Positions 1 through 58,829 of a DNA stretch of 64,000 nucleotides are shown here, in pieces. Origin of the DNA: Chara braunii (Eukaryota > Plantae > Charophyceae); NCBI GenBank assembly GCA_003427395.1, contig BFEA01000010.1:2621202-2685201 (forward strand), read 5' to 3'. The position numbers and the translations under genes were made by a program. The first letter of the stretch is position 1. Each line of letters begins with the position of its first letter. The notes under the pieces were generated by a model. The model was not told the origin of the DNA, did no database searches, and was given only the letters and a program-made list of their open reading frames with translations.

Positions 1-451
1 CACAGAAGGGTAACGTCCACAGACCATCTGGAAGGTCTGGAAGCGACTCTTGAATCGTTGCTCTACAGCGGCCCAGAGGCCAAGTGGGCCGCTGCACTTT
101 CATCCCTTGCCGAATCAGCAGTACCCAGTCTCGGTCTCACTCAATCTAGTCAGCGAGTACCGTATGAGACCGTGTGTACTGGTCCTGGTCAGTCAGAGCC
201 CAGTCCACCGAGTACTGTATGGGATTGTGTATGCTCAGGGCAAATGGAAAAGGGTAGGCAGGGGCGGACATGGCCGCCATAGCTTTAGCAGTAAGATGGC
301 GTAGTGTGCGTGTGCACAGCAAGTAGCATGTAGGATATTCAAGGCGAGTCACTGTATCCTGAACAGGGAGTCGCACGAGCGCTGAGTCACCATAGTCATT
401 GAAAGTGAGCCCGTCTCTGAGTTGTCATATCTCTGAGTTTTGAGTGGGCGC
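1..451 (-). repeat. E2 3' LTR, distal visible part (continues beyond window)
   Basis: Aligns with 35229-~35675 and resumes at 8536 after the solo-LTR insertion. Confidence 0.85.
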
Positions 452-1414
452 TGTCGTGGCAAACACCCTTACAAGGGTATTTGCCGTTGTTTTGAAAGGT
501 CGCGCTGGGTCCGACCTTGGCCACAGAAACGTGCCGATAGGACGAGTTCTGACGGTACTCGCGTCTTAGTAATTTGTTGAAAGCGATTTGATTAAGCTAA
601 GTATGCTGAGGTTAGAGAGTGTGTGGGCATACTCTTTTGAGTATGCGATTGTCGTAATTAGCGATTGCGGTCGGATTGACGGCCAACACAGAAACCGGCC
701 CCTTTGGGCAAAGATACAAGGCATCGGGGGATTAAACTTTGATAAGCAAGTGTCATATGCGTCTTATGTGCGGGCGCGATAGTTGATTTTGTAAGTAAGA
801 CTGGTTGTTTTGTTACCAGTATTGAGAAAAGTCAGTTGAACTTCGTTGTCAAATCGATGGCGGCTCGGTGTAAAGTAGTGCCCGCAACGGCAACGAGTAT
901 TAGGAGTAAGGGCCTTAGTACTACCGAGGCAGCTCATTAGGCCATCACTAGTAGGGGCTCCGCATACCGAGTGCGAAGATCGCGGCCCTGGGGCCAGCGG
1001 CGCGACCGAGTAGGGGGAGAGCCTACTTGAATATGTATGGTAGGCCTACCTGGTGGCGGATACTACTTGAATGAAGTTCCACGTGCGATTGTGTCAGGTT
1101 TGGGTTTAGCCCTATTGGTTACGACATTCACCTTCACCAGGGAGATCCGGGGATTGAGGCTAGCAAGCAACGATAGAGTAGAAGAGCGCAATTGGAAGAG
1201 ACTGAGGGGTTGAGGGTCCTTAGGGACTATCCCCCTTGGTTTTGCCGAACGGGTCCAGCCGGGGTCTAACTGGCGAAACCAAGAGGGCGCCGGCGGGGCC
1301 TCGTTGTCGTCGGTTCTACTAATTTCATTTTTGATATGTTTTTACTTGTATTTTTTATTTTTATTTTTCTTCTCTTCAATCCCGTCTTGAACCAAGCAGG
1401 AAAACTGGCTCTGG

Positions 1415-1945
1415 GACCGACGGCGAAAAAGTACCGCAAGGAAGGATGAAAGGAACCTTGAAAGAAAGAAAAGAACGCTTGAAATTGTTGAGCGATGAGC
1501 GGATGGAGAGAAGTCGTGTACCCATACCTGGTCGAGGGCAGACGGCGACTTGGTCGTCCCCATCATTGGCCAGTACGCTGGGTGCCTGCCAGCATGGGTT
1601 GCTGTGACAGCATTGCATTGGGGAATGATTGGAACTTTCCCCCACGGGTGGCCGTCACGGCAGCCGATGACCTTGAGTACGCGCCTCTTTTAGCAGTAAC
1701 GTTCGGGGTCCTGCGTACTCGGGGTGATGACAAAATTCCTCTATCCTACCCGTCTTGAAAGCACAGACCGAAGGGGCCAACGTGTCGGTGAGCCTGTGGG
1801 TGCAAAGCCCTCGAAGCAGCCGGATCCCGAGTGGCAGGGATCTCCGGCAGATGCACCGTCCGCTAGCCAGGATCTGCTGTTGGAAGGCTTGAGTGTGAGC
1901 AGGCCCGTGGGACCCGAAAAATAGTGAACTGTGCCCGGGCAAGGC
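1415..1945 (+). pseudogene. Diverged fragment of 28S/25S LSU rRNA (around D2-D3)
   Basis: Conserved LSU blocks in the correct order: GACCGAcgGCGAAaAAGTACCGC..GATGAAAgGaACcTTGAAA..GCTTGAAATTGT, then ACCCGTCTTGAAAgCACaGACC, then GGGACCCGAAAaATaGTGAACTgTGCC. Confidence 0.85.
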
Positions 1946-1989
1946 ACAGTCTAACAGCTAAGATTTGCTGTAAAGAGGTTTGAGTGTGA

Positions 1990-2837
1990 ACAGGTCTGCG
2001 GGATCAGTACCATTGGGCCTAGCTTAGTTGGCACACCCGCAGACTGTTGAAAAACAGCTCTGCAGGATCAGTGCCACCGGGCCTGGCTCAGTTGGTACAC
2101 CCGCAGAGTGCTGAAAACCAGGTCTGCGGGATCAGTGCCACTGGGCCTAGCTCAGTTGGTACACCCGCAGACTGCTGGAAAACAAGTCTGTGGGATAAGT
2201 GCCACTGGGCCTAGCTCAGTTGGTACACNNNNNNNNNNNNNNNNNNNNNNNNNNNNNNNNNNNNNNNNNNNNNNNNNNNNNNNNNNNNNNNNNNNNNNNN
2301 NNNNNNNNNNNNNNNNNNNNNNNNNNNNNNNNNNNNNNNNNNNNNNNNNNNNNNNNNNNNNNNNNNNNNNNNNNNNNNNNNNNNNNNNNNNNNNNNNNNN
2401 NNNNNNNNNNNNNNNNNNNNNNNNNNNNNNNNNNNNNNNNNNNNNNNNNNNNNNNNNNNNNNNNNNNNNNNNNNNNNNNNNNNNNNNNNNNNNNNNNNNN
2501 NNNNNNNNNNNNNNNNNNNNNNNNNNNNNNNNNNNNNNNNNNNNNNNNTGGAAAACAAGTATGTGGGATAAGTGCCACTGGGCCTAGCTCAGTTGGTACA
2601 CCCGCAGACTGCTGGAAAACAAGTCTGTGGGATAAGTGCCACTTGGCCTAGCTCAGTTGGTACACCCATGAACTGTTGAAACCAGGCCTGTGGGACCGAA
2701 GCCACAGGGCGTGGCGCAGTTGGTACACCCGCGGAGTGCTGAAAACAGGCTTGTGGGACCAGCTCCCGTAGGCCAAGCTCAGGTGGTATACCCACGAGCT
2801 GCTGAGATACAGGCTGGGGTTCGAATCCAGGTACAGT
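1990..2837 (+). repeat. 64-bp tandem array with tRNA-like A box (includes assembly gap 2229-2548)
   Basis: GGGCCTAGCTCAGTTGGTACAC or variants at 2015, 2079, 2143, 2207, 2580, 2644, ~2707 and ~2771. Each unit has the stem CCCGCAGAC..GTCTGYGGG. Confidence 0.85.
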
Positions 2838-2862
2838 CAAAAAAAAAAAAAGAAAAAAAAAA
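2771..2862 (+). ncRNA. tRNA-derived SINE-like unit (A box, B box, A-rich tail)
   Basis: AGCTCAGGTGG at ~2776 and GGTTCGAATCC at 2818, at tRNA-like spacing, followed by an A-tract at 2838-2862. Confidence 0.7.
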
Positions 2863-2875
2863 GGGGCTACCAACA

Positions 2876-3085
2876 GGCCTATGACTCGGTTGGTACACCC
2901 GTGCACTGTTGAAGTACAGACTTGAGTTCGAATTCCAGTGGGAGCAGATGTGTAAAATACTGCAGTCTTGACTACCAAGGCCCGGTACCTGGCCCGCGAC
3001 CGGTGCTGCATCAACGGGCCTAGCACGATTGGTACACCCCTGAACTATTGAAATACAGACTCAAGTTCGGGTCCAGATACAATCA
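2876..3085 (+). ncRNA. Two further degenerate tRNA-like A/B-box units (~2876-2945, ~3016-3085)
   Basis: TGACTCGGTTGGTACAC..GAGTTCGAATTC and TAGCACGATTGGTACAC..AAGTTCGGGTCC. Confidence 0.6.
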
Positions 3086-3134
3086 GGTGAACAAAATAAA
3101 ATAACCCTGAATTACTGGGGACTGGTCCCCTTCT

Positions 3135-3231
3135 GTCCTTCGGGACATCCGTTAAAATTGGAATGATACAGAGAAGATTAACATGGACCCTGCGGAAGGA
3201 TGACACGTATAAATCGAGAAAAAGGGGGTCC
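3135..3231 (+). pseudogene. U6: Near full-length U6 snRNA-derived copy
   Basis: GTCCTTCGGGACATCCGTTAAAATTGGAATGATACAGAGAAGATTAACATGGACCCTGCGGAAGGATGACACGTATAAATCGAGAAA follows plant U6. The ACAGAGA box (3168-3174) is intact but the AGC triad reads AAC. T-runs follow at ~3247-3258. Confidence 0.92.
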
Positions 3232-3505
3232 GACAATCTCAATAGGTTTTTGTTTTTCTGGTCAGTGCCTGTCGGACCAAAGGGTGATTTGCGTTGGGAA
3301 AGGCAGAGGGGATAACGTGGGGCAAGAGGGAGATGAAAGAGATGGTGCAACGAAGAGAAAAGGGGAAGAAAACGGAGTGAAGAAAGCACATCTTGGGCGT
3401 TTGCAATGAATTTTTGTGGAGGAAGATGCTAGACTGAATTTTTCTGCTATGGCGAACCTGATTCTATAGTCAGAATGGCCGAAAAGTTAGTGGAATAGGA
3501 GCTAG

Positions 3506-3880
3506 AAGAAAAAAGAGCTGCTCGGGTGGAGTCGAGGAGAAAGAGAGGAAGGGAGAACGGGAGCAAAAATTGTGTAGCTCACTCGTTTCTCAACGGAAAC
3601 GAGCGAGTGAAGAGTCGAAACGGGGTTTTTTTAGCACTGGGAATCCATTGGCGAAGTCAGATTTCAGGTATAGTGGATCGTTTTCGCGCTACAGAGAAAA
3701 GAGCTGTGCGGGTGGAGTCGAGGAGAAAGGGAGGAAGGAAGAATGGGAGCAAAAATTGTGTAGCTCACTCGTTTCTCAACGGAAACGAGCGAGTGAAGAG
3801 TTGAAACGGGGGTTTTTGAGCACTGAGAATCCATTGGCGAAGTCAGATTTCAGGTATAGTGGATCGTTTTGTGCTACAGA
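3506..3880. repeat. ~187-bp direct duplication inside LTR1
   Basis: Two near-identical copies, each with the hairpin CTCGTTTC..GAAACGAG. Confidence 0.85.
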
Positions 3881-5679
3881 GGTAAGATGCTGCGCGGTGG
3901 GACGTATTTTTCAAATATTCATGGGGAAATTTCATTTTCTTTTTGCAGTTTTGGTGAATAAGGCAGCAGGCACACAAATCAGGCAACGAGTAGATGCAAG
4001 CGCTACACACACAGAGAGAGGAAGAGACTCTCCTGGCATGCGGACTCCTACGTAAGACTAGGATGTATCTTCCCACTCTTTAGCGGGAGATTCATTCTCA
4101 TTTTGTACATTTAGTGAATGGTGGAGCTATGACCATGCTATACTCATCTTGCAGTTATACCGGTCCATGCTCACGAGTGGCCCCTGCGTGGTGTTCCTTT
4201 CAGTCGTAGCCTCCTCCTCTAAGTTGGTGTTCACGGCCCTACGTGCCAAAGCCCGATTAAAGTCGGAGCTATTTTCATCGAATTCTTAGTGATCTCCCTG
4301 CTCTTCTCGTAGGTTTTTTCACCTGCTTCATTACAGTGGCTTCCATCCTCTGACTGCGGATGCCCACTCTGCAGTCGCTCCCTCGTCCTCTCCGTAGTCA
4401 GATTAAGTTGTTGATTGCTGTGTTTGTTTGAAGTCGTCCCGCTGTATCAAAGGAGAGAGGTACTGGAATCTGATCGGGATCCGGACCAGATACAGGGAGG
4501 GAAAAGAGGTCAAGAGAGAAAGAGAGAGGTAGGCAGGGGGCGTGTGAAGATTGAGGCCAGCTAGAAACAGAAAGGGAAACCAGCACTAGGAGGTGTCCTC
4601 ACCTAGTAAGTTGGGTAATGATACTTGGCCAACAAGCATAGCAAGAATTAACAGATTGAGAACTCTTTTCTAGATCGTATGGGTGTCAAGGAGCACGTCA
4701 TTGGGTATCTGTAGTAGCTGCAGTAGTTTGAGTTGTTGTCTGCTCAGCAAGATACAGAGGTTGCTATATCTAAGACCTTGTGTTGCTACTGTTGAAGGCC
4801 GAGTTGCTGTCATTGAGACTGTTGCTGCTGCAGCTGGTTTGGGATTGCTGTTTCAGCAGGCCGACTCTTACGACGGGTGTGACGTTAGCTACATGGACAT
4901 TGGGCTACCGGGGTTCCAGTGGATTAGGCCACAGCCTGGGTTACTGTTTCGTCTCCTTGCTCGGGTTGCTGATTTCCTTCAAGGCACTGATGCTGCTCTT
5001 CGAGAAAATGGTAGTTGCTACCACCGTCCCTGAGCTCGGATGTTGTTCATAATACGCATGATTGCAATCCGGATGGCCCTTGTCTTCAATCCTTTGGTGG
5101 TGGATGGTTGTTCGTGGATGGTGGAATGACATGACCCAGTTAGCTTGACTAGTAGGGAGGAATCCGGCTTGCTGAACGATTGCGGCAGCTGCTCCGGCTG
5201 GTGAGATTGCAACCCACAGACTGCATCAAGGCCTAGGTGGGAGTATGCCCCCGCCACTTGGGGGAGCTCCACCGGAGTTTGGAGTTGACTCTGAGGGTGG
5301 GGAATACTGAGGTAACTATGTTGACCATTTTGTATACTCGGTATTGTTACCCCTACCTGTACAACTCACTAGTTTGACTGATACCTATGCATGCACCCCT
5401 ATTTTGACTTTTGTCTGTTTTATTTCAGGAAAAAAGTCAGGTTAAAGTAAAGAAATGTGTGTATAAATTCAGATATTATTATACTGTTTGACTGAAATCA
5501 GATTTGTGTGGCTAGGAAAATCAGCCTGACTAACAGTTTGCCTGCGATTGTCTGGGCTTAAAAAGGCTGGGCATTATGTCCACAAGGGACTCGCTCAGCG
5601 CTTTGTTTACTTTGATTGCTTGGAGGACCTGACAATGTTTCCATTAGGGATTGGTCAGGTCACTCTGATTGTGGGGGTT

Positions 5680-6235
5680 GTTTGCCTGGACGGTGAAACT
5701 GGGACCCAAGGCAGGATTCGGGTCGCCTTGTTGTTTGCCTGGATATTGAAACTGGGACCCTGGGCAGGACTCGGGTCGCTTTGTTGTTTACTCGGACATT
5801 GAAACTGGGACCCTGGGCAGGACTCGGGTNNNNNNNNNNNNNNNNNNNNNNNNNNNNNNNNNNNNNNNNNNNNNNNNNNNNNNNNNNNNNNNNNNNNNNN
5901 NNNNNNNNNNNNNNNNNNNNNNNNNNNNNNNNNNNNNNNNNNNNNNNNNNNNNNNNNNNNNNNNNNNNNNNNNNNNNNNNNNNNNNNNNNNNNNNNNNNN
6001 NNNNNNNNNNNNNNNNNNNNNNNNNNNNNNNNNNNNNNNNNNNNNNNNNNNNNNNNNNNNNNNNNNNNNNNNNNNNNNNNNNNNNNNNNNNNNNNNNNNN
6101 NNNNNNNNNNNNNNNNNNNNNNNNNNNNNNNNNNNNNNNGACATTGAAACTGGGACCCTGGACAGGACTCGGGTCGCCTTGTTGTTTGCCTGGACATTGA
6201 AACTGGGACCCTGGGCAGGACTCGGGTCGCCTTGC
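5680..6235. repeat. 53-bp tandem array inside LTR1 (gap 5830-6139)
   Basis: GAAACTGGGACCC recurs at ~5695, 5748, 5801, 6146 and 6200. Confidence 0.85.
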
Positions 6236-8535
6236 TTAACTCGTTTGCTTGGCCTTGGAATTAAAAAAAAAAAAAAAAAAAAAAATGGACATAAAAGGAA
6301 CTAGATGTATAATAGGATTGGAGTTGGAGAAATAAAATTAAACAAATAAGATACGAGACATTGCACATGATAGAAGCAGAAAAGAGAAATGAATATTCTT
6401 TTGAATTTGAGTCTCGCTTCAGTGATTGCTACTGTTTGGTGAATTCTTTTGCTTTGTCATTTTGATAGTTTAGTCTCTTAGAGATCGCTTATGCTTGAGC
6501 GACAGACAGGTAGTCGCATATGTCTGGTCTTGTTTGAGGTCTTTAGTGGTCACTCGCTGAAGGATAAGCTGACTGTTGGATTAGTAGGAATTTTGGGAGC
6601 CTCCGTTCTTAAGGGAGAATGCTGCCGAAATTTCTGATAAATTTACGAAGTCAGTCAAAACCTGTGAGTCTTTTGAGGTTAGACTTAGGATTGTCTTTGG
6701 GATTAGTAGAGATTTTTGAAGCCTTCCTTACTAATGGCAGTGCTGCCGAAAATTCTACTAAACCCAAGGAAGTCGAGGTTAAGTAACTTTTAGCTCAGGA
6801 GTTTATTTAGATTTGAATTTGTATATTTTCTGTGGGCTCACCCCTTTAGGGAAGATGCTGCCCAAATTTTTGCTATTTTTACGTCGTTACTGGGCTTTAT
6901 AGATAGAGGAAGTGCGATACGGAGTTCTTCTCCGGTAATGCGACAGATGGTGGCTACGTTATTTATGACGCAGGTTATAGCTACCTAAGGGAGATTATGT
7001 GTGATAAGCTTCATCAATTTTCTGCTATCACTGAATAGCAGGTCAGTTAGTCGATCGAACTGATCGATCTACGACTCAGCCATGCCCATCGTGATACCCA
7101 TGCCATGATGCTTGGAATCTCCCTGCTATAATGACATTCCCTCAAAATGATAACCTTTCTATCCCTCTTACCTATCTCCTTGAAATGACCATGAAAAAAG
7201 TTGAGAAAGCTGAATAGAAAGTGGGGGTATGCCATTGTTAAAAGAGGGGGTCGGTAGAAGGGGCATGTGGGATATGAATTGGGAGAGAAAGGGTTGACCA
7301 CGGAGTGGTATTTTGTGTACGAATGTCAATGGGATTTTGTGTGGATGCAGGTTGGTATTAGAAGCAAGGAACCGCTCCTCGAATAATAATGCTTTGGAAT
7401 GATGTGCTTAAGGCGAGTAGCAAGAATCAACTCGGGACTGTGAGAATGACTTACCCTGGCTTCCCTCGAGAGTCTCTCTATTCCCTTATAAACCCCTGAT
7501 CTGCACCTTGGATTCCTGATGTTGACCTTGAAAATGGACGTAGCGATTGTGTGAGAGAGATGGTCTTGGAAAATGCTACGGAATTTTCTTCTCTCTCCGA
7601 GTGATGGTCCTCTGAACCATCATGTGATCGTTACGCTTATCCTTATCGTGGTTGAAAGCTGGATTGGACAGTCCGCGACGGGTAAGAGAACACAGTCATC
7701 TGCGGTGTAAGCTCTCCCTCGCGACAGACGCTCTTCTGAGCCCTACACGTGAGACGCGAGAGGCTTGAGGGTCGGTGATCACTCTTAGTGGTCGTCTTCA
7801 ATATTAAAAGGCTAAACTCTTTGGGGAGCAAGCAAGCCAACACCTAAGTGTCTAAGGCACTCCTCGGTTCCATCGAGAAGTGTGCGGTTATGATTACTCC
7901 GTAAAACACCATTACGGAAAAAAGGGGTTTGTTTTCAAGCTTCATGGCTTCGATATGATTAAATCGGTTCCTTCCATTTTATATTGAGTACTTGATCAGA
8001 TTCTGTGAAGAACAGGATGNGAAAAATTATGGGTAGTTCCGTCAANGGACTAGGCGATGATCCAATTAAGTTTATCAAGTTTTCTTCGAGCGGAGGACTA
8101 CCGCGTGGTCACCTAATCGTCCTAGTCGACCGACGTATGGCCCCGTTTAGGAACTCAGCCAGCCTATGACGAGGGTATGCGTTCGGGTTCGATCCAGGCG
8201 TTAGCTGCACGTGCCCCTATGCTACAGCGAACGAGCAAACACCCTCGGTTGGCCTACCTCTGCGACTGCATCATAAGAGCTCTCGCACGTGGGTCAGTAG
8301 CTCGGCAGGGATACGCCCACCCACAGGATGGTGACAACTCCCAACGGGTGGAGGTAAGTTGTGCCTCACGCAGCCTCTGTCCTGTCGCAGGAGCGCGCGA
8401 GAGGTATGGCTGGCCCACTCGGCCAGAGCGGCACCAGGGCGCGCGTTTGTTTTCCGCGCGTCCGTCAAGCCCCGCCTAATCCTGCGTGACAAACGCCGGG
8501 AGGGTCCCACTTGCGCGGGATCGATGCGTACGAAA

Positions 8536-8645
8536 GTGCGTGTTGCCAGTTTGTTGCGCAATTGTTTGTATGTATGTAAAGTGTGAACGAAGTCAAATCA
8601 AACCCCTTTATTGCCACTACTACTACTACTAATAATAATATAAGG

Positions 8646-8697
<52 letters not shown>

Positions 8698-9983
8698 TAA
8701 TAATTAGTAGTAGGACTCTGATCAGTAGCAGCTTCGGAAAGCGAACAACACTATATACACAAGACCAAATATTCGTGACCCAGGACCAGCAGTAGGATCG
8801 CATGACGGAATTCACCAGATACAGGCACCCTAAGAGTTCACAATTGATAATGCTGAAACAGTCCTATCACCAAAAGGAACCAGAATTGTTATCTTATCAG
8901 GTTTTGTGGTTGCTTGCAACCTTCCTACCTCACAGCCTGTGCGCGGTTCGCGTATTCATCAGGCTACGTCCGTCTGTCCCCGCATGTCTGTTTCCGTATG
9001 CCTCCTCCTGTTTGTCTGTCCACATTCGTACCCTCAGACCATTATATTCTCATCTGTCCACGTCCATCGTCCTGTCTGTACGTGAGTGCTTGGGTGAGGA
9101 GTGTGTGTCTGTATGTTTGTTCGTTTGTTAGTGTTTGTCTGCCGGAATGACCTTGTCTGCATGTCTAACCGACTGTGTCATAGGTACGACCGTGTCTGTC
9201 GGCTTGCCCGATTGTCTGTGTATGCCTGGGATGTCTATGTTTGTCCATTCCCCTCTCTGCGTCTGTTTGACGTTCTGCCTGTCGAAGTTTGTCCGCCCGT
9301 GGTTGTTTAACCGACTATGTTTGCCTATCTGGTCGGCTGTCCGTGTCAACCAGACTGTTTGTGTCGTTGACTGTATATGCTTGTCCGCTGCTGCCCGTAC
9401 CGCGTCTCTACTACAGTTTGTATCCATTTGGTGTAGTTTGTGTCTGATGGTTCGTCTGTCCGAATGAGTCTGTTGGTCCTTCTACATTGTCCGTGTCGTG
9501 CCAACTCACAAAGTCGGTGGTACCAGTCCAGCTAGTCCCAGTCTGGTCCAATAAGTACCACGGGGATTGTGAACACCGTGGGTTGTTGGTAAAGGCAGAC
9601 CAACGAATCTCCGAAGTAGCGACAACCATTCATCCACTTCCGCGTGAGCCATGCAGAAGCGCTACCTCAATGACTAGTGCAAGGAGGTCTGCAGAGAGCC
9701 TGGAGCCGAAGTAGGCGAGGCGGTAGCATAGCCATATCTGTAAGTGGTGGCTGTTACCACAGCCGTCATAACTGTAGTTGTTGTACAGTGCGTGTGTGAT
9801 AACAGGGTGACCCTGTATATGAGAACAAAGAGAGTCGTGTAGCGCTGAATCGCCATGACTATTTGCATTGAACTTGAATCAGAACTGTGTTCTCGGTTTA
9901 CCATTCTCAGAGATCTGAGTGCGCACTTGTCGCTTGTTTGTTGTGCCACCCGTTTATATCCATGAGTCTACCTATAAGATAAC

Positions 9984-10054
<71 letters not shown>

Positions 10055-10063
10055 TAATCAGTC

Positions 10064-10097
<34 letters not shown>

Positions 10098-10952
10098 TCA
10101 TTTCGGCGTACTTCAGGAATCAAACAACGTTATCTCCACAAGACCAGATAGTCGTGACCTCGAACCAACAGCAAGATTGCACCCCGAGATTCACCAAGTA
10201 AGAGTACACCGAAAAATTGGCAATGCTGAATAGTCCTATCATCATCATCAACGAAGAACCAGAATTGATATCCTATCTGGCGCTCGGCGCCCAGACTACA
10301 TGTGATAGATCCTAACTAGCTTATACTACAATGCAGAAGTTCACAACAACAACTTCTCGAAGTACGAGCGTACAACGGCCAATGCCGCATGCTTTCAGCA
10401 TCAGACATGTTCCCACGTCTCACTCACAACTTCGTTTTCAAATGCTCAGCATGCCATGTGGCCCGAAGGATCAAAGCCTGAATTAACAAGTTATTATTGT
10501 TCGAGATTTAATAATAATAATAATTATTATTATAATAACAGAAGCAATAATATATAATAATAATAATAATAAACAATAATACTAATAGTAAACCAACTAC
10601 CTTACCCGCCTGATTCCGTCGTGCCGGGCGCAACCCTGCCACGTCGCTGGCCTAAGGGTTTCTGCCCTTTACACACGGTGAGTTTCGGGTAAGGCTAGGC
10701 GAGTGCTCTCTCCCTCTCTTCTCCCTCTCTTCTCACTCTCCTTCCTTCTTTTTCTTCGCGTATTTTCTCTTTTCTACTTTCATTCCAGCCTTCCTCCAGC
10801 CCATCTTGTTTACCTTCTTCACTTTCAACAGTCACACAGACTCCGATCTATGTCTCTTGTGATCACAGCGACTGACTCAGAAAAGTCAGGACGAAAATGA
10901 TAGTTTTGCGGACTGAGAGGCTTTGACCGGCGGCAGTTCATAAACAACAAAA

Positions 10953-11004
<52 letters not shown>

Positions 11005-11482
11005 GAGCGCAAACAATAAACAGAAAATCAAGTCGTGAAATCACACAGGTGTCCAGGTAGTCGTGTCCAAGCAGGGAATACAAATACGTCGAGAAACAAT
11101 CCATATAGAGCAGTACAACGAAGTAGTGAGCCCATGTCCAAGCCCGTAGGCCACTCTATCACAGTATCAAAAGTCGCTCTCTGCTTTCCGGCGCTTGACG
11201 CCCAGCCTACTCTACCTGACTAACCTACCTACAGTCGGTTCACGCAGCAAGATCACTTCAACTCTCGAAGACCAATGTACATGGCTGTCAACACCATCCC
11301 CGACCTCTCTTCACGTACCAGGTACGTATCACGTCACCCTCAATCACACCTTGATAGCCTCCCCACTCGCCTCATTCCAGAAGACCTCTAGATCGCCCGT
11401 TGTACCCCTGACACCTCGATCATGCGACGTCAAATACGGCCCCTCGAGGGCTCGTTCCTCACAAATAATAACGATAATAATG

Positions 11483-11526
<44 letters not shown>

Positions 11527-52387: not shown

Positions 52388-52904
52388 GCCGGCTTGCTCC
52401 TGTCTTCTTGGCATGCTGACGTGGCAGCTGCCATGCGCTATCGCTGATGTGGCTACTGCCACGTGTATCATTGGCTGACGTGGCTGTTGCCACGTGTGTT
52501 ATGACTGGGACTACGTAATCGACATTGCTGTTTTGTTTCATCATCACTTCAGGAGGAGATCAGGACTGTGGAGAGTTCGTGATACGTACCTAGTTATCTT
52601 CATGTCGACATTGCTCCAGTGCTGATGTGGGACTGATTAGACGTGCCACGCAGCACATTGAAGCTATTTCAGATACTCGTTCAGACTATTATTATTGAGG
52701 TGGTAGTGAGGAGGAAGCCCGGAGCAGGAGTGGGCATTGTACTTCCTCTCCTTTGTCTCATCTCCCTCCTCTCTCTTCGTCTGTGTATGATTACCTCACC
52801 TCATTCTGTCTGGTATGATTTTGACTATTAGTAATCATCAGTTGATGGACATTTATCTGAGCTTGCATTGTTGACAACTGTCTTCACGTTCTGGGTTCAT
52901 TGCA
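52388..52904 (+). repeat. E4 5' LTR (probably 5'-truncated)
   Basis: Matches 58311-58829. Confidence 0.85.
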
Positions 52905-52907
52905 ATT

Positions 52908-52919
52908 TGGTATCGGAGC
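52908..52919 (+). promoter_or_regulatory. E4 primer-binding site, tRNA-iMet
   Basis: TGGTATCGGAGC vs canonical TGGTATCAGAGC, 3 nt after the LTR end. Confidence 0.88.
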
Positions 52920-54382
52920 TATTCTCCCGACGACGACATTTGTATGTGGGTACGCGCCAGGTGGCGCGCAGGTAAGTAAGGTTGAGTGGGTGATGACGTG
53001 GCAAGGGATACGCTGGGGGTATTGACGTGACACATACCTCTCTCGCGAGAAGACATTATCGGGGTTTGCTGACGAAGTACAGATTTACTGGCGAGAAGAC
53101 CTGACCGGAGCAGTTGACAGGGTAGAGACCCTGTTGGCGAGAAGACATCCCTACCACGCTGATGACGTGGCAGTAGGGATCGCGACAAGGGATACTGCAC
53201 GCCAGCCAGGATCCCGATAGTGACGTGGCATCGCGATCCCATGCTGACGTGGCACATATAGTGTTGCGTCTAAAGACTCTGTTGATTGCTGATGTGGCAG
53301 TTTTTGTACTGCTGACACGCGTCAGGGTCTACTACAGATGTTCACGTGGCTTTGGGGAACAAGACTGACTGCTGATGTGGATGGAAAGAGTCATCACACT
53401 TGTTCTATGACGTGGTGACTACCTACTGACGTGGCAACAGACCCTTTGGCTGACGTGGCATGATCTGACGGGCTGGACGGCGACGACATCTCAACGTGAC
53501 ACGCGGAAGTAGCACGTGGTGAGGATCGGACTACACATTTGCTGACGTGGCATCCCATCATTGACAGACTGGACAGAGTGCTGACGTGGCAACATTTGCT
53601 ATGTTGGCACTCCCGGGATGACACGTGGCAGGCAGGATACTGCCAAGTAAGAGGTGCACTCTAAAGACGACGACAGTATAACTGACTGGACTAATTGCAC
53701 AGCTGTAGTGCCAGCTGTTAGGGAGAGTGAGTGATCGCACTCACATCAAGAAGACACAGCAGACTGACGAAGGTTGCTGACAAACTGTTTTGTGATTGTT
53801 GTTGGCATACTTACCTGTTGTTGTTGTGTGTGGTGTTTGCATACTTACTTGTGTGTTGTATCTGCCTGAAGTGGTACCTGTATACTCTTGTTTATGACGT
53901 CATCACACAAGCAGACAAAGAATAGCAATAGTTAGAAATAAAAATAATTGTATCTAATTCTTTTTCCTTCAGTGATGAGAAATCTTGCTGTTATAGATCA
54001 GTGCGGCCGTGGAATTTATTATTGTTATTAAGTATTTATTGTGCGGCAGACGCACATTACAATGTCTCATTTCTGGAATTGTTTGAAATTGCCGGCTCTC
54101 ACTCGTTTCATTCCTTTCTTTTTTTTCCCAGTCTCCCTCACCTTTGGTATTGATGAGGGGACTCCTGACCCCCGAACCAGACAGCAAGTTGAAGAGCGAA
54201 AAAGAGTCTTGATTAGTCATTTGGATCAACTGGTATTTCCATGACGCTGGTGTTGAAGTAGAGGCACACGTTCGTGCCCACTTGGATTTGAAAGCAATTC
54301 ATGTTGCTATCGAATCAGCTGAGACTGGCACCGACGTCTTTAAAGTTCAGAATGAACTCATCAAGTGTGACTTGCAAAGATC

Positions 54383-55241
54383 TCATAACAGAAGGAAGAG
54401 AAAAAAGTCGATGTGACTGAAGAAACCGTGGATGAGAAAATCAGACAATTGGAAGAAGCACTTGAGAAAGTAAAAAAAAGGAAACAAGAAATGAGAAGAC
54501 GTAAAGAAAAAAATGTACAGCAAGAACAAAAAGTGGAAGAAATTAGACAAACTGTCATTCATACTGAAGGGGAAGAATAGGCAATTTCTTTGGCCCAACT
54601 TGTGACTTACCTTGCTCACATAGAGATGAAAATTGACACAGACTAATGCACGGATTGATGATATGGCCGCGGGATTACAAACAATCACGAACCTGGTCAA
54701 AGGAAAACAACATGTGACGGAGGAAAGCGAAAACGGAAAGGAAAAGAAGTCGAAGAAATTGTTGGGAGACGTAATGAAGTCTCTCAAGGTAGAAATAGAG
54801 AAGACAGAAAAAAAACCAAAAACAAAGAAACGGGAGTCTTCGAGTCCGCTGTCTTCTCCACCAAGCTCCCCTCCTTCCTCTCCACCTCCGAAGTCTTCGA
54901 AGCTGCGAGTCAAGCTAAGTGCGGAACCGGAGAAACCAAAAAGGAAAGAAAAGATAAAGATGAAATTGCCATTCACGTTTTGCAACAAGAAAGACGAAAA
55001 CTTGCTGCTCTGGATCGCGAAAATCCAAACGTATTGCAGTACGGCCCCTGTCGAACCCGAGTCCCAGGTTGCTTTCTCTACCTCTTGTCTAGGGGGGGAA
55101 GCGAAGGAATGGGTATTGGCCGAAGCCAACACTGCGGGGTTTGATGACATTGGTGAATGGGCCTCAACACTGAACTTGAAGCAGTTCCTTGACAAAGTAA
55201 AGGAACGCTTCCTTCACAAGACAATCAACAGGAATAACTGA
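54383..55241 (+). pseudogene. gag: E4 gag fragment
   Basis: Coiled-coil N-part, then ENLLLWIAKIQTY..LGGEAKEW..FLDKVKERF. Joins directly to pre-RT sequence at ~55227. Confidence 0.75.
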
Positions 55242-55244
55242 ATG

Positions 55245-58010
55245 TGCTATCAAACACACAATTGAAATTATTCCTGGCAGTAAGATTCCCAAGGGCCCTA
55301 TCTATCGAATGCCTCCTAGAGAACTTGAGGAATTAAGAAAACAATTGCAGGACTTAACAGAAAACGGATGGATTCGCCCAAGTTCCTCTCCTTATGGTGC
55401 CCCTGTCTTATTTGTGCCCAAAAAGGAAGGTGAGTTACATCTCTGTATTGATTATAGAGGGTTGAATGTCGTCACTGTTAAGAATGCCGAACCTCTTTCA
55501 CGAATTGACGACTTACTTGACCAGTTACAGGAATGCAGGTACTTTAGCAAGATCGACTTGAAATCTGTGTACCACCAGATCGAGGTGGAACCCTCCGATC
55601 AGCATAAGACCGCTTTCCGAACCAGGTATGACCAATACGAGTTCATGGTAATGCCCTTCGGATTAACGAATGCCCCTGCTACTTTTCAAAGGTCAATGAA
55701 TGACTTGTTTCGTAAATGGTTGGATAAGTTTGTTATTGTCTATCTCGATGATATTATAGTGTATAGTAAAACACTAGATGATCATGAGAAGCACCTTCGT
55801 CTGGTGCTAGGGAAGTTGCGTGAGGGCAACTTCAAGATCAATCCTAAGAAGTCCGAGTTTCGTAAGTCCGAAGTGTTATACTTAGGACACATAGTAAACG
55901 AAGAAGGTCTAAGGCCGGAAGAGAAAAAAATTTCAGCAATTAGAGATTGACCACAATGTAAGTCTATAACTGAATTGCGATCTTTCCTTGGTTTAGCTAG
56001 TTACTACAGGAACTTTGTTAGGAACTTCTCACTGATTGCTGCACCAATGCGAAGATTGTTAAAGAAAGAAACTATTTGGTTGTGGGATAAGGATTGTGAG
56101 TCTTCCTTTCGGAAATTGAAGTATGCCCTGACTCACCACCCCGTCCTTAAGATTGTTGACCCGTCTTTGCCTTTCATTGTCACTACTGACGCAATTCAGT
56201 ATGGGATTGGAGTTGTTCTCCAGCAGGATGACGGCAAGGGCAACAGGCCCATAGAGTTTATGTCTGCATGACTGTCGTCGGAAAAGGTTGCCAACTCCAC
56301 CTATGAAAGGGAGTTGTATGCCTTAGTCTATGCACTAAACACATGGAAGCACTACTTATTAGGGAGACACTTTACTGTGTATTCAGACCACTCTACTCTG
56401 AAGTGGATAAAGACATAGCCTAGGTTCTCTGATAAGCTGGTACGATGGTCTGCGTTTATTGATACCTTCGATTTTGAGTTGAAAATGATCAAAGGTAAGA
56501 GTAATGTGGTCGCAGACGCATTGTCCAGACGGAGTGATTTCTTTGGTGCAATTGTCTCCTACTTGGATGTTGGGAATGACATGAAAGACCAGATTCGCCA
56601 AGGATATGCTACTGATCCTATCTGGAAACCAATCATGGATATCCTTGTACGAGATCCATCCCAACTACCCAACTATAGATTGACTGATGGATTGTTGTTC
56701 TTGATGGACCAAACCGAACAAAGATTGTGTATTCTTCATAAGGAAGAGATTAAGAGTGTATTGATTGGTAAATGTCACGATTCTGAGGGTCATTTTGGTT
56801 TCAAGAAAACATATGCTGAAGTCAGAGAACGTTTCGAATGGAAGGGACTTAAAGAGGATGTACTAACATATGTTCGTACATGTCTAGTGTGTCAGAGAAA
56901 CAAGTCGTCGCATGAGAACCCCCTTGGACTTCTCAAGCCATTACCTATACCAAGCGAACCAGGTGAGTCTATCTCAATTGACTTTAAAAGTCGCAATGGT
57001 AATAGTCAAGTGAGGGTAATTATGGATCGTTTCTCTAAATATGCTATGTTTGTTCCCTTACCAGCAGAAGCGCGGACTAAACTTGTCATTCAAAAATTTC
57101 AGATGCGATGGGTCACTGAGTATGGGTTCCCTAAAACCATTGTGTCTGATCAAGATGTCAGGTTCACCAATCTGCCATGACAAAAGCTGATGGAAGCTTA
57201 TGGCACACGGCTGACCATGTCGTCAGGGAGGCATCCCGAAACGAATGGTCAGACTGAACAGATGAACCGTCTGTGCCAACAGCTTTTGCGTATGTATATT
57301 AGACCCGATCAGATTGATTGGGGTGAGAACTTACCCAAAATTGCAAGTGCATATAATAATAGTGTTCATACTTCCACTGAACGAACCCCGAATGCACTTC
57401 ACAAAGGGTGGAAGCCTAAACGTCCCATTGACATACTAAACCGGGACCAGAGTCTAAGGTTGCCCCAGGGACCTGAGAATATGCAATCTTGTTTCAGGAG
57501 GACATTCAGAAAGTTAAAGATAATCTAAGGAAAGCTCAACTATGGATGATTGAACAAGCCAACAGGCACCGTCAACCGTCTACCTTCAAAGAGGGTGATT
57601 TGGTTTGGGTAAAATCTAAAACGTTTTCACTAGAAGAAAATGTCTCCCAGAAATTGCTACTTGTCTATTTTGGAACCTGGGAAGTTCTCAAGGTAATTGG
57701 CGATGTAGAGGGACCGTCTTATCGAGTTGATATCCCCCCTTATCTCAAAACATATCCTGTCTTTCATGCGTCCAAATTGTTGCCTTACGTAGAAGGAAAT
57801 GAGTTTCCATACAGACCCTCTATGATTCCACCAGACATGGATGACGGATACGAGGTTGACAGGATCATAGAGCATGGGTACTTCTTTACGGGAGGACGTG
57901 GACGACCTCAGAAGCAGTTCAAAGTACGTTTTAAAACTCAAGCACCATCTGAGGACAAGTGGTTTAGTAAACGAGAACTACTTGAAACTGCTCCTGATAT
58001 TATTGCTTCT
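55245..58010 (+). pseudogene. pol: E4 pol: RT, RH, IN and chromodomain (protease missing; stops)
   Basis: SPYGAPVLFV, CIDYRGLN, MPFGLTNAPATFQ, YLDD; RNase H VTTDA..GIG; IN CHD..GHFG..CLVC and HPETNGQTE; chromodomain YEVDRIIEH..FKVRFK..DKW. Confidence 0.95.
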
Positions 58011-58310
58011 ACACTCACTTGTTGTGCGAAGGTACCCAGACAGCATCCAGGGCGGAGGGAATTTGGTTTCAGGCCAATCTAGGCCATCATTTGCATTAAG
58101 ATCTGGACGGCTGAGGGATACAGCATCCAGGGTCCAGCCCCCGCGTCAACACTACATAAGAGCTGACTCCCTCGCTTTGACATTCATTCTGTCTTGCGTT
58201 GATGCTGACTTCACGCGTTGACTTCAACGCTGACTCAACGATGTAACGCTGGCTCGACGTTGCGACGCTGGCATTGTGACTTGGCAAGGCGCTGCTAGTC
58301 CGGCATGGTG

Positions 58311-58829
58311 GCCGACTTGCTCCTGTCTTCTTGGCATGCTGACGTGGCCGCTGCCATTCGCTATCGCTGATGTGGCTGCTGCCACATGTATCATTGGGTA
58401 ACGTGGCTGCTGCCATGTGTGTTATGACTGGGACTACGTAATCGACATTGCTGTTCTGTTTCATCGTCACTTCAGGAGGAGATCAGGACTGTGGAGAGTT
58501 CGTGATACGTACTTGGTTGTCTTCATGTCGACATTGCTCCACTGCTGATGTGGGACTGATTAGACGTGCCACGTGGCACATTGACGCTATTTCAGATACT
58601 CGTTCAGACTATTGATTATTGAGGTGGTAGTGAGGAGGGAGGCTGAAGCAGGAGTAGACATTGTACTTCCTCTCCTTTGTCTCATCTCCCTCCTCTCTCT
58701 TCGTCTGTGTATGATTACCTCACCTCATTCTGTCTGGTACGATTTTAGACTATTAGTAATCATCAGCTGATGGACATTTATCCGGGCTTGCATTGCGGAC
58801 AACTGTCTTTATGTTCTGGGTTCATTGCA
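58311..58829 (+). repeat. E4 3' LTR (true start may lie upstream)
   Basis: Matches 52388-52904. Confidence 0.85.

Follow-up and report, generated by a model that had tools for sequence, protein, structure and literature searches.

Sequences derived from 28S rRNA, a tRNA-like repeat and U6 snRNA inside a multi-kilobase solo LTR of Chara braunii

How does one long terminal repeat (LTR) come to carry pieces of several unrelated host RNAs, all in the same orientation, and do these pieces serve the element or travel with it as passengers? We addressed this question for a stretch of 64,000 nucleotides of Chara braunii contig BFEA01000010.1 (hereafter the window). At 452-8535 the window contains a solo LTR that is nested in a larger Ty3 element, and within the LTR lies a cassette made of a 28S ribosomal RNA (rRNA) fragment, a tandem array of tRNA-like units, two further tRNA-like heads and a U6 small nuclear RNA (snRNA) copy. 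A sequence-only reading had proposed that the cassette is a family module that provides RNA polymerase III (Pol III) transcription or mimics host RNAs. We find that most of the cassette is shared by other copies, and lean, somewhat beyond even, towards stepwise capture of abundant non-coding RNAs into the LTR, followed by amplification as a passenger.

The cassette and the LTR that carries it

The cassette comprises the following parts, in order:
1381..1945, plus strand: decayed, host-derived 28S/25S rRNA fragment of ~560 nt (model positions ~317-853, including expansion segment D2)
1956..2003, plus strand: local duplicate of the 28S end, copying 1865-1912 (36/48 identical)
2004..2838, plus strand: 64-bp tandem array of 7 to ~13 units, several of which fold as twin hairpins, with a gap of 320 N at 2229-2548
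2839..2862, plus strand: A-run of 24 nt with one G
2863..2960, plus strand: head 2, resembling a short interspersed element (SINE), with a short body; A and B boxes degenerate
3003..3085, plus strand: SINE-like head 3; A and B boxes degenerate
3125..3240, plus strand: near full-length U6 snRNA copy
3247..3257, plus strand: two T5 runs, at 3247 and 3253, the first runs of four or more T after 1691; a possible Pol III stop

The large subunit (LSU) rRNA fragment, first read as ~530 nt long, is recovered by the Rfam model RF02543 with 74.9 bits (E 1.4e-17) when 1250-2050 is scanned alone. In an 8.7-kb scan the score is 29 bits (E 7e-4), under the gathering score of 50. Homology starts at ~1376-1395 and ends at ~1945. 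Nine of 30 letters differ from host rRNA in one loose contig end. Of 13 listed substitutions between host and LTR copy, 11 replace G or C by A or T, and C>T or G>A changes account for 9. By eye, 17 of 79 model pairs are non-standard, 15 of them in the poorly aligned expansion segment. Given this high divergence from host rRNA, compared with the age limit of the LTR insertion (see below), the 28S piece is old and decayed. The alignment score of its local duplicate was reached in 0 of 1000 shuffles. A D2 pattern had 0 matches in metagenomes. An LSU core pattern, which served only to place the start of homology, matched one unrelated locus (L001, positions 1-1026), a viral-collection record with ~160 nt of eukaryotic LSU rRNA at its start and unrelated sequence thereafter.

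The array repeats with a period of 63-64 at 1989-2228 and 2549-2804, on both sides of the gap. Nine A-box-bearing units were found within three mismatches, versus 0 in 100 shuffles, using an A/B-box consensus in line with section 3.5 of PMC10886601. The gap edges are identical at 51 of 52 letters, so the array holds at least 7 and at most ~13 units; the proposed array stands, and its proposed count of at least eight units holds only if the gap edges do not overlap. Each unit joins the 5′ ~47 nt of a SINE-like tRNA head to ~17 nt derived from the end of the 28S fragment, to which the spacers of the last units can also be aligned. This alignment and the repeat of 1865-1912 at 1956-2003 indicate that the array formed in place, after the 28S piece and a head had been joined. 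The sole exact B-box (2819) lies at the end of the last unit. The A-run that follows, previously taken as the tail of a complete A/B-box unit, may be that tail or the A-rich flank of the next head, as A-rich loose ends lie 5′ of dispersed heads in contigs. Two more A/B-box units had been noted, and both are present as heads, with degenerate boxes.

The array units are not tRNA genes and most likely do not stem from such genes directly. ARAGORN predicted 0 tRNA genes, no Rfam tRNA match was obtained and the units do not fold as a cloverleaf. We compared genomic contigs (X1 and X4, which represent one sample, possibly the source of the assembly) and RNA reads over window positions 300-3100. Summed contig depth, which is no copy number, reached 40,000-66,000 in bin 2650-2743, versus 6.7-17.5 in unique-looking contigs. 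Contigs at this bin show diverse A-rich sequence before 2645 (loose-end agreement ~0.43) and a B-box continuation after 2681. High depth, diverse flanks and B-box continuation together identify the array unit as the head of an abundant dispersed repeat, and such a high-copy tRNA-like head with diverse flanks is what characterizes SINE2 elements. Most simply, the repeat would be a tRNA-derived SINE. Thus, of the three host RNA classes first proposed, 28S and U6 are confirmed, and the tRNA-like part most likely stems from this SINE-like repeat. The repeat family itself (2645-2681) combines a tRNA-like head with A-rich flanks on the 5′ side. Its 5′ end base-pairs with the A-box of the same head, and the A-to-B-box spacing is canonical; the triplet at the anticodon position would presumably read Asn. 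The head pattern had 0 matches in viral, metagenome and prokaryote collections, and we found no description of the family in the literature searched.

The U6 copy scores 76 bits against RF00026 (gathering score 44) and covers model positions 1-105 of 105, so that of the Rfam checks proposed for the cassette, those for U6 and LSU gave significant matches and that for tRNA did not. In the Rfam alignment the splice-site-binding box is intact, the catalytic triad carries one change and the internal stem-loop two, and the 3′ end has diverged. By eye, the copy differs from the model at 4 of ~52 highly conserved positions. It therefore lacks the intact catalytic triad and internal stem-loop of a functional U6 gene. 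Together with the upstream flank, its 5′ end makes up a short palindrome (3117-3130).

The LTR setting is defined by these features:
452..8535, plus strand: solo LTR, 8,084 bp long with its two gaps counted at their estimated sizes, with a TGTCG start and a worn CGACA end like that of the outer LTR
448..451, plus strand: left target-site duplication (TSD), GCGC; the right copy, GTGC, is at 8536-8539
452..480, plus strand: LTR start motif, common to the outer LTR (24/29) and present in the genome at very high copy; summed contig depth ~25,000 in bin 394-487
14431..28847, minus strand: internal region of the outer Ty3 element, with protease, reverse transcriptase (RT), RNase H and SH3 matches (Pfam); the solo LTR sits in its 3′ LTR
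28848..41626, minus strand: 5′ LTR of the outer element, which contains the empty site and is without 28S, U6 and tRNA-like array

Pfam matches place the outer Ty3 element at 1-41626 on the minus strand. The flanks of the insert correspond to uninterrupted sequence in the sister LTR (1-446 to 35229-35673, and 8536-14430 to 35675-41626), where 35229-41626 is without the insert. This within-window comparison places the empty site at ~35670, and filled and empty site lengths reconcile only with a 4-bp duplication (GCGC/GTGC). A 5-bp duplication (GAGTG/AAGTG) was rejected, as it would require an additional 4-bp indel and forfeit the TG start. The 5′ TG is exact and the 3′ end reads CGAAA, versus CGACA in the homologous outer LTR. 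The insert is collinear with the outer LTR over its first 29 nt (24/29 identical), a middle stretch (E 0.007) and 8218-8431 (75%). The earlier call of a solo LTR of ~8 kb is thus borne out by the empty allele, the TG...CA ends (the 3′ end worn) and a TSD within the 4-6 bp range. On these sequence comparisons, 452-8535 is a solo LTR of a family related to the outer Ty3 element, with its sense on the plus strand. We also considered 452-1126, with its ACGACA end, as a distinct short LTR and rejected it: the window holds no second copy, and the far end of the insert matches the outer LTR end. The outer LTR pair has diverged by a Kimura two-parameter distance (K2P) of 0.038 over 6,276 sites; the solo LTR entered later than the outer element, so this value sets an upper limit on its age.

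Copies of the cassette elsewhere in the genome

The claim that the cassette belongs to a family and is not private to this copy fared well for the LTR, the 28S piece, the array and the two heads, by depth, LTR-specific alleles and bridging contigs. Collapsed contigs over the 5′ part of the LTR have a depth of 81-83 (X1) and 97.5-99 (X4), in contrast to the values of unique-looking contigs given above. Positions 2977 and 2997 have a depth of 71 in both X1 and X4, and contig record 8 (2901-3046), which shows 3 differences, has a depth of 51.5. The window's allele is almost always the one found in DNA contigs at 1617, 1625 and 1636 (depth 92-282), where rRNA reads have the host letter; this letter accounts for 0/249, 7.8/282 and 7.8/248 of the DNA contig depth in X1 and for 0 in X4. 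Record 12 of X4 (1263-1413) crosses the LTR-28S junction; its 151 letters contain 12 differences and 5 gaps, so it must come from another copy. Record 15 of X4 (1979-2137), at depth 29, crosses into the array. Older 28S-like contigs (records 6 and 13) are 11-15% diverged. This indirect evidence supports a multi-copy state of LTR, 28S piece, array and heads over 452-3046, with 28S alleles specific to the LTR, and the cassette is then, as far as 3046, not unique to this copy. We infer about 5-10 close copies in addition to older, diverged ones.

Some relatives appear to be simpler. At the joint 1914>3029 (X4 depth 18.5), the end of the 28S piece is followed by just one head, with 22 letters in between. 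Others involve the sequence just ahead of the cassette:
1198..1247, plus strand: stable hairpin (-24.8 kcal/mol); depth 7,500-11,800 in bin 1146-1239
1321..1380, plus strand: T-rich spacer, 15% GC, with five T5-T6 runs

In some other contigs a tRNA-like head lies within ~35 nt 3′ of this hairpin, without any 28S sequence. The joints are 1243>2650/2651 and 1244>2645/2646, and 1243>2650 has an X1 depth of 22. The joints 1914>3029 and 1243>2650 indicate that simpler, intermediate relatives exist in the LTR setting.

Two high-copy motifs, 1095-1128 and the hairpin at 1198-1247, sit ~75 nt closer together in other contigs. They may mark a conserved signal of the LTR, or be remnants of an ancestral LTR that was shorter. 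The last six letters of the first motif, ACGACA, form a perfect 6-bp inverted repeat with the LTR start.

Origin of the cassette and competing explanations

The sequence of events that we favour, if only by a modest lean, would begin with a SINE-like head placed behind the LTR hairpin. A 28S fragment would then have joined in front of the head, and a 64-bp stretch across the 28S/head junction, both sides of which share the short word ACAG, would have been duplicated in tandem. More heads and U6 would have been added later. A subfamily of about 5-10 close copies would have spread, and the present copy would have recombined to a solo LTR. The likeliest route would be switching of the reverse transcriptase onto abundant co-packaged non-coding RNAs, or ligation with them; alternatively, retrocopies made by long interspersed elements (LINEs) may have inserted into the LTR. 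Capture at the RNA level forces the sense orientation. All cassette pieces are sense to the LTR, which has a chance of 1 in 8 to 1 in 32, depending on the number of independent pieces, and this favours such a route. The related outer LTR is without the cassette, which counts for a passenger. Retroviral particles are described as packaging pre-snRNAs, pre-tRNAs and SINE RNAs (PMC4931115), and chimeras in which LINE-1 is joined to full-length U6 or to 28S fragments, in both cases in sense orientation, are on record as well (PMC13174262).

Several points weigh against stepwise passive capture. We saw no junction bearing a scar that would be diagnostic of capture, and none of the contig pieces listed spans the whole cassette. 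The contig data considered comprise 16 of 14,533 pieces, 40 of 293 difference rows, 15 of 238 joints and 24 of 1,328 loose ends. On the sense strand, seven A-boxes and one B-box are exact and 1692-3246 is free of T4 runs, as fits a Pol III unit. Folding of the expanded array units beats shuffles in 4 of 7 units (z -2.2 to -6.1, versus -1.1 to -0.1 in the other 3). Expanded units also form a more perfect second hairpin than the most SINE-like unit does (post-hoc p about 0.02-0.035). The RNA data are two oligo-dT runs (X5 and X6, about 6% and 12% read) from what may be a different strain; such libraries can miss Pol III RNAs, and a Pol III RNA is therefore still compatible with them.

These points lead to the strongest competitor, a Pol III module of the kind known from Cassandra and Helenus. 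Here the amplified set of A-boxes, together with the single exact B-box, would attract TFIIIC and give rise to a ~0.5-kb hairpin-rich RNA ending in U6, or would act as an insulator under which the LTR stays open. We regard this as possible, at well below even chances. Besides the seven exact A-boxes and single exact B-box, with the first run of four or more T only after U6, it draws on the heads that sit behind the same LTR hairpin in relatives without 28S and on the twin hairpins, the second of which pairs the head with the 28S-derived arm. Only 5 of 111 background windows of the insert reach z -2.5, and 3 of those 5 lie inside the array. Neutral template-switch mutation of near-palindromes can also perfect hairpins. 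Covariation among array units gave nothing net (term +1.37; two-sided change in 3/23 pairs), the boxes of heads 2 and 3 are broken, and the T4-free stretch is not significant, since 390 of 2000 shuffles were likewise T4-free. A slight sense excess in bin 2744-2837 (depth 4.6 vs 0.4) in one RNA run is in its favour; the other run has 0 there, and RNA reads on the head are evenly split by strand (238/258). The TRIMp3 elements described in the available text of PMC10886601 provide a precedent. In the same text, Kojima argues that Pol III processivity restricts such elements to about 1.3 kb, which would leave an element with 8-kb LTRs without a Pol III genomic RNA.

A bolder form of this idea predicts that a Ty3 family with giant LTRs has built its own Pol III non-coding RNA gene, with a multiplied SINE promoter behind the synthesis of a twin-hairpin array RNA that has a catalytically dead U6 at its end. 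We offer it tentatively and consider it rather unlikely. If true, it would be the first Pol III module in multi-kilobase LTRs and not in miniature elements, with 28S and U6 as co-opted parts.

A composite retroposon of 28S, heads and U6 could instead have been assembled elsewhere by LINEs and have entered an ancestral LTR once, perhaps persisting outside LTRs. SINE28, SINEU and U6/28S-LINE chimeras make such a unit conceivable, as far as the available parts of PMC5786205, PMC4494074 and PMC13174262 describe them. The cassette has T-rich flanks at both ends that share 6-7-nt words, and 28S bins are deeper (108-450) than the 5′ part of the LTR; 28S-like contigs with 11-15% divergence are present as well. 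This depth excess is unreliable, because depth inflates at contig overlaps (at 833-861, in plain LTR sequence, it is 301-411 in X1 vs 99 in X4). A stand-alone chimeric retrocopy would carry its own TSD and a 3′ A-tail. No A-tail follows U6, and no TSD bounds the cassette or its blocks, where the best repeats are 7-8 nt and T-rich or chance-like; the sequence-only reading had named such a TSD beforehand as a sign against a family module. With simpler intermediates present in the LTR setting as well, we judge a single entry to be improbable.

Mimicry of host RNAs, as a U6/U4 or Lsm decoy or as rRNA-like camouflage against silencing, would suit the sense orientation of all pieces and a near full-length U6 in which, as could be the case in a decoy, the splice-site-binding box is intact and the catalytic triad is dead. 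We consider it very unlikely. Identity of the 28S piece to host rRNA is low and patchy with broken pairs, the family is small and the U6 3′ end has diverged. No RNA of the LTR 28S allele was seen in the two oligo-dT runs: at position 1625, RNA reads without the host rRNA letter number at most 3 of 11,627 (X6) and 0 of 73 (X5), and reads on 1522-1803 are true rRNA, mostly less than 95% alike to the window. LTR-specific bins 582-1051 have an RNA depth of 0-1.3. Given no signal in these runs, which can miss Pol III RNAs, the A/T drift of 28S and the U6 lesions, the proposed Pol III transcription or mimicry gained no backing, and the case for any functional role of the cassette is unsupported and leans negative.

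An assembly chimera, or independent recent insertions into this copy alone, would fit the 320-N gap that splits the array and a contig coverage that stops at 3100, ahead of U6, and can practically be dismissed, given the bridging contigs, the family-fixed alleles and the number of U6 changes (more than the 1-2 expected from the insertion age), which leans to capture before insertion.

Known RNA-bearing elements and the surrounding sequence

The closest parallels to this LTR, on which the sources cited below are used as far as their available text extends, are the TRIMp3 families Helenus and Ajax (Kojima 2024, PMC10886601). They also carry tRNA- or SINE-derived A/B-box sequence in the LTR that is not a functional tRNA, solo LTRs occur, and birth by a SINE entering an LTR has been proposed. 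In contrast, Helenus elements are 311-1263 bp long, their LTRs do not exceed 323 bp and they contain a single RNA class, and here an 8.1-kb LTR, which alone exceeds the miniature size of <~1.3 kb, has three classes and a chimeric tandem array. The only plant Helenus found in that text is from Selaginella and has 5-bp TSDs. Cassandra, a terminal-repeat retrotransposon in miniature (TRIM), likewise has host structural-RNA sequence fixed in the LTR of a green-lineage element (PMC10853983, PMC10946416, PMC10886601). Its conserved 5S promoter tracks the host gene and drives transcription (PMC10853983), whereas the 28S piece here is decayed and without an internal promoter. Rfam scans gave no 5S rRNA match, which sets this LTR apart from Cassandra.

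SINE28 and SINEU show that 28S- or snRNA-derived sequence can be amplified in retroelements by sequential additions (PMC5786205, PMC4494074, PMC10946416), although they are non-LTR elements of mammals and crocodilians and SINEU derives from U1/U2. The table of ribosomal DNA in transposable elements in PMC10946416 lists 28S for SINE28 only and no LTR element. Chimeric retrocopies with LINE-1 resemble our cassette in that ligation or template switching has joined host RNAs to a retroelement: U6 at full length and 28S fragments of 50-482 nt, both in sense orientation, as well as halves of tRNAs (PMC13174262). They are one-off, TSD-flanked and located at LINE 5′ ends, whereas the cassette is inherited in an LTR family. 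Ogre elements are plant Ty3 elements with very long LTRs, of 1.9-6.5 kb versus 8.1 and about 12.8 kb here, and Burro elements are given as >30 kb (PMC6431247).

We found no LTR with 28S, tRNA-like and U6 sequence, and no account of these Chara elements, in the literature searched; Repbase, subscription papers and supplements lie outside this search, so absence from print is not proven. As far as the search reached, the triple RNA load in an LTR is undescribed. Small-RNA sequence in LTRs is otherwise known from miniature elements only (Cassandra, Helenus, Ajax), and here it sits in a multi-kilobase LTR. Sequence from three RNA sources is combined at this locus, and the genome retains traces of intermediate states, which points to a possible way in which TRIMp3 elements arise and LTRs become gigantic. 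Even as a passenger, the cassette is a record of the host RNAs met by a plant-lineage LTR reverse transcriptase, and the Pol III module, should it prove active, would represent a new type of RNA gene encoded by an LTR. Caution is warranted with U6 and rRNA annotations of this genome, which include LTR-borne pseudocopies.

Outside the cassette, Rfam gave nothing credible in 452-1330, 3270-5800 or the outer LTR; matches to miRNA, CrcZ and isrG models were far below threshold. Protein searches with the open frames over cassette and LTR yielded nothing relevant. Their sole match, the unrelated repeat protein P0022, was rejected, as it had no tblastn match to the window. Other tandem repeats of the solo LTR are located at 3507-3897 (186 bp x2) and 5677-6234 (a 53-bp array, a gap of 310 N, then an A-run), from which it appears that the LTR grows by tandem duplication at several places.

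The outer Ty3 element would total ~40 kb, with apparent LTRs of ~12.8 kb and a 14.4-kb internal region. Its LTR length combines 6.3 kb of identity shown in the window with a remainder inferred from the TG...CA end at 28848, insert-end homology and the primer site, presumably of tRNA-Asp type, that follows this end. Every one of the 21 homologues of the RT/RNase H frame (20139-21098) is a protein of Chara braunii, with an identity of 63% at best. Besides gag-pol, the element has extra open frames on the minus strand at 16600-17526, 17831-18595 and 25753-27372; the first and last, the frames tested, had no credible Pfam match. Its LTR includes a 71-bp tandem array at 31037-32001 and 33147-33350, split by ~1.1 kb of different sequence (32001-33147) that is probably a nested insertion. 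A second, small Ty3 element at 52388-58829 has 517-bp LTRs that are 93% identical and an RT at 55201.

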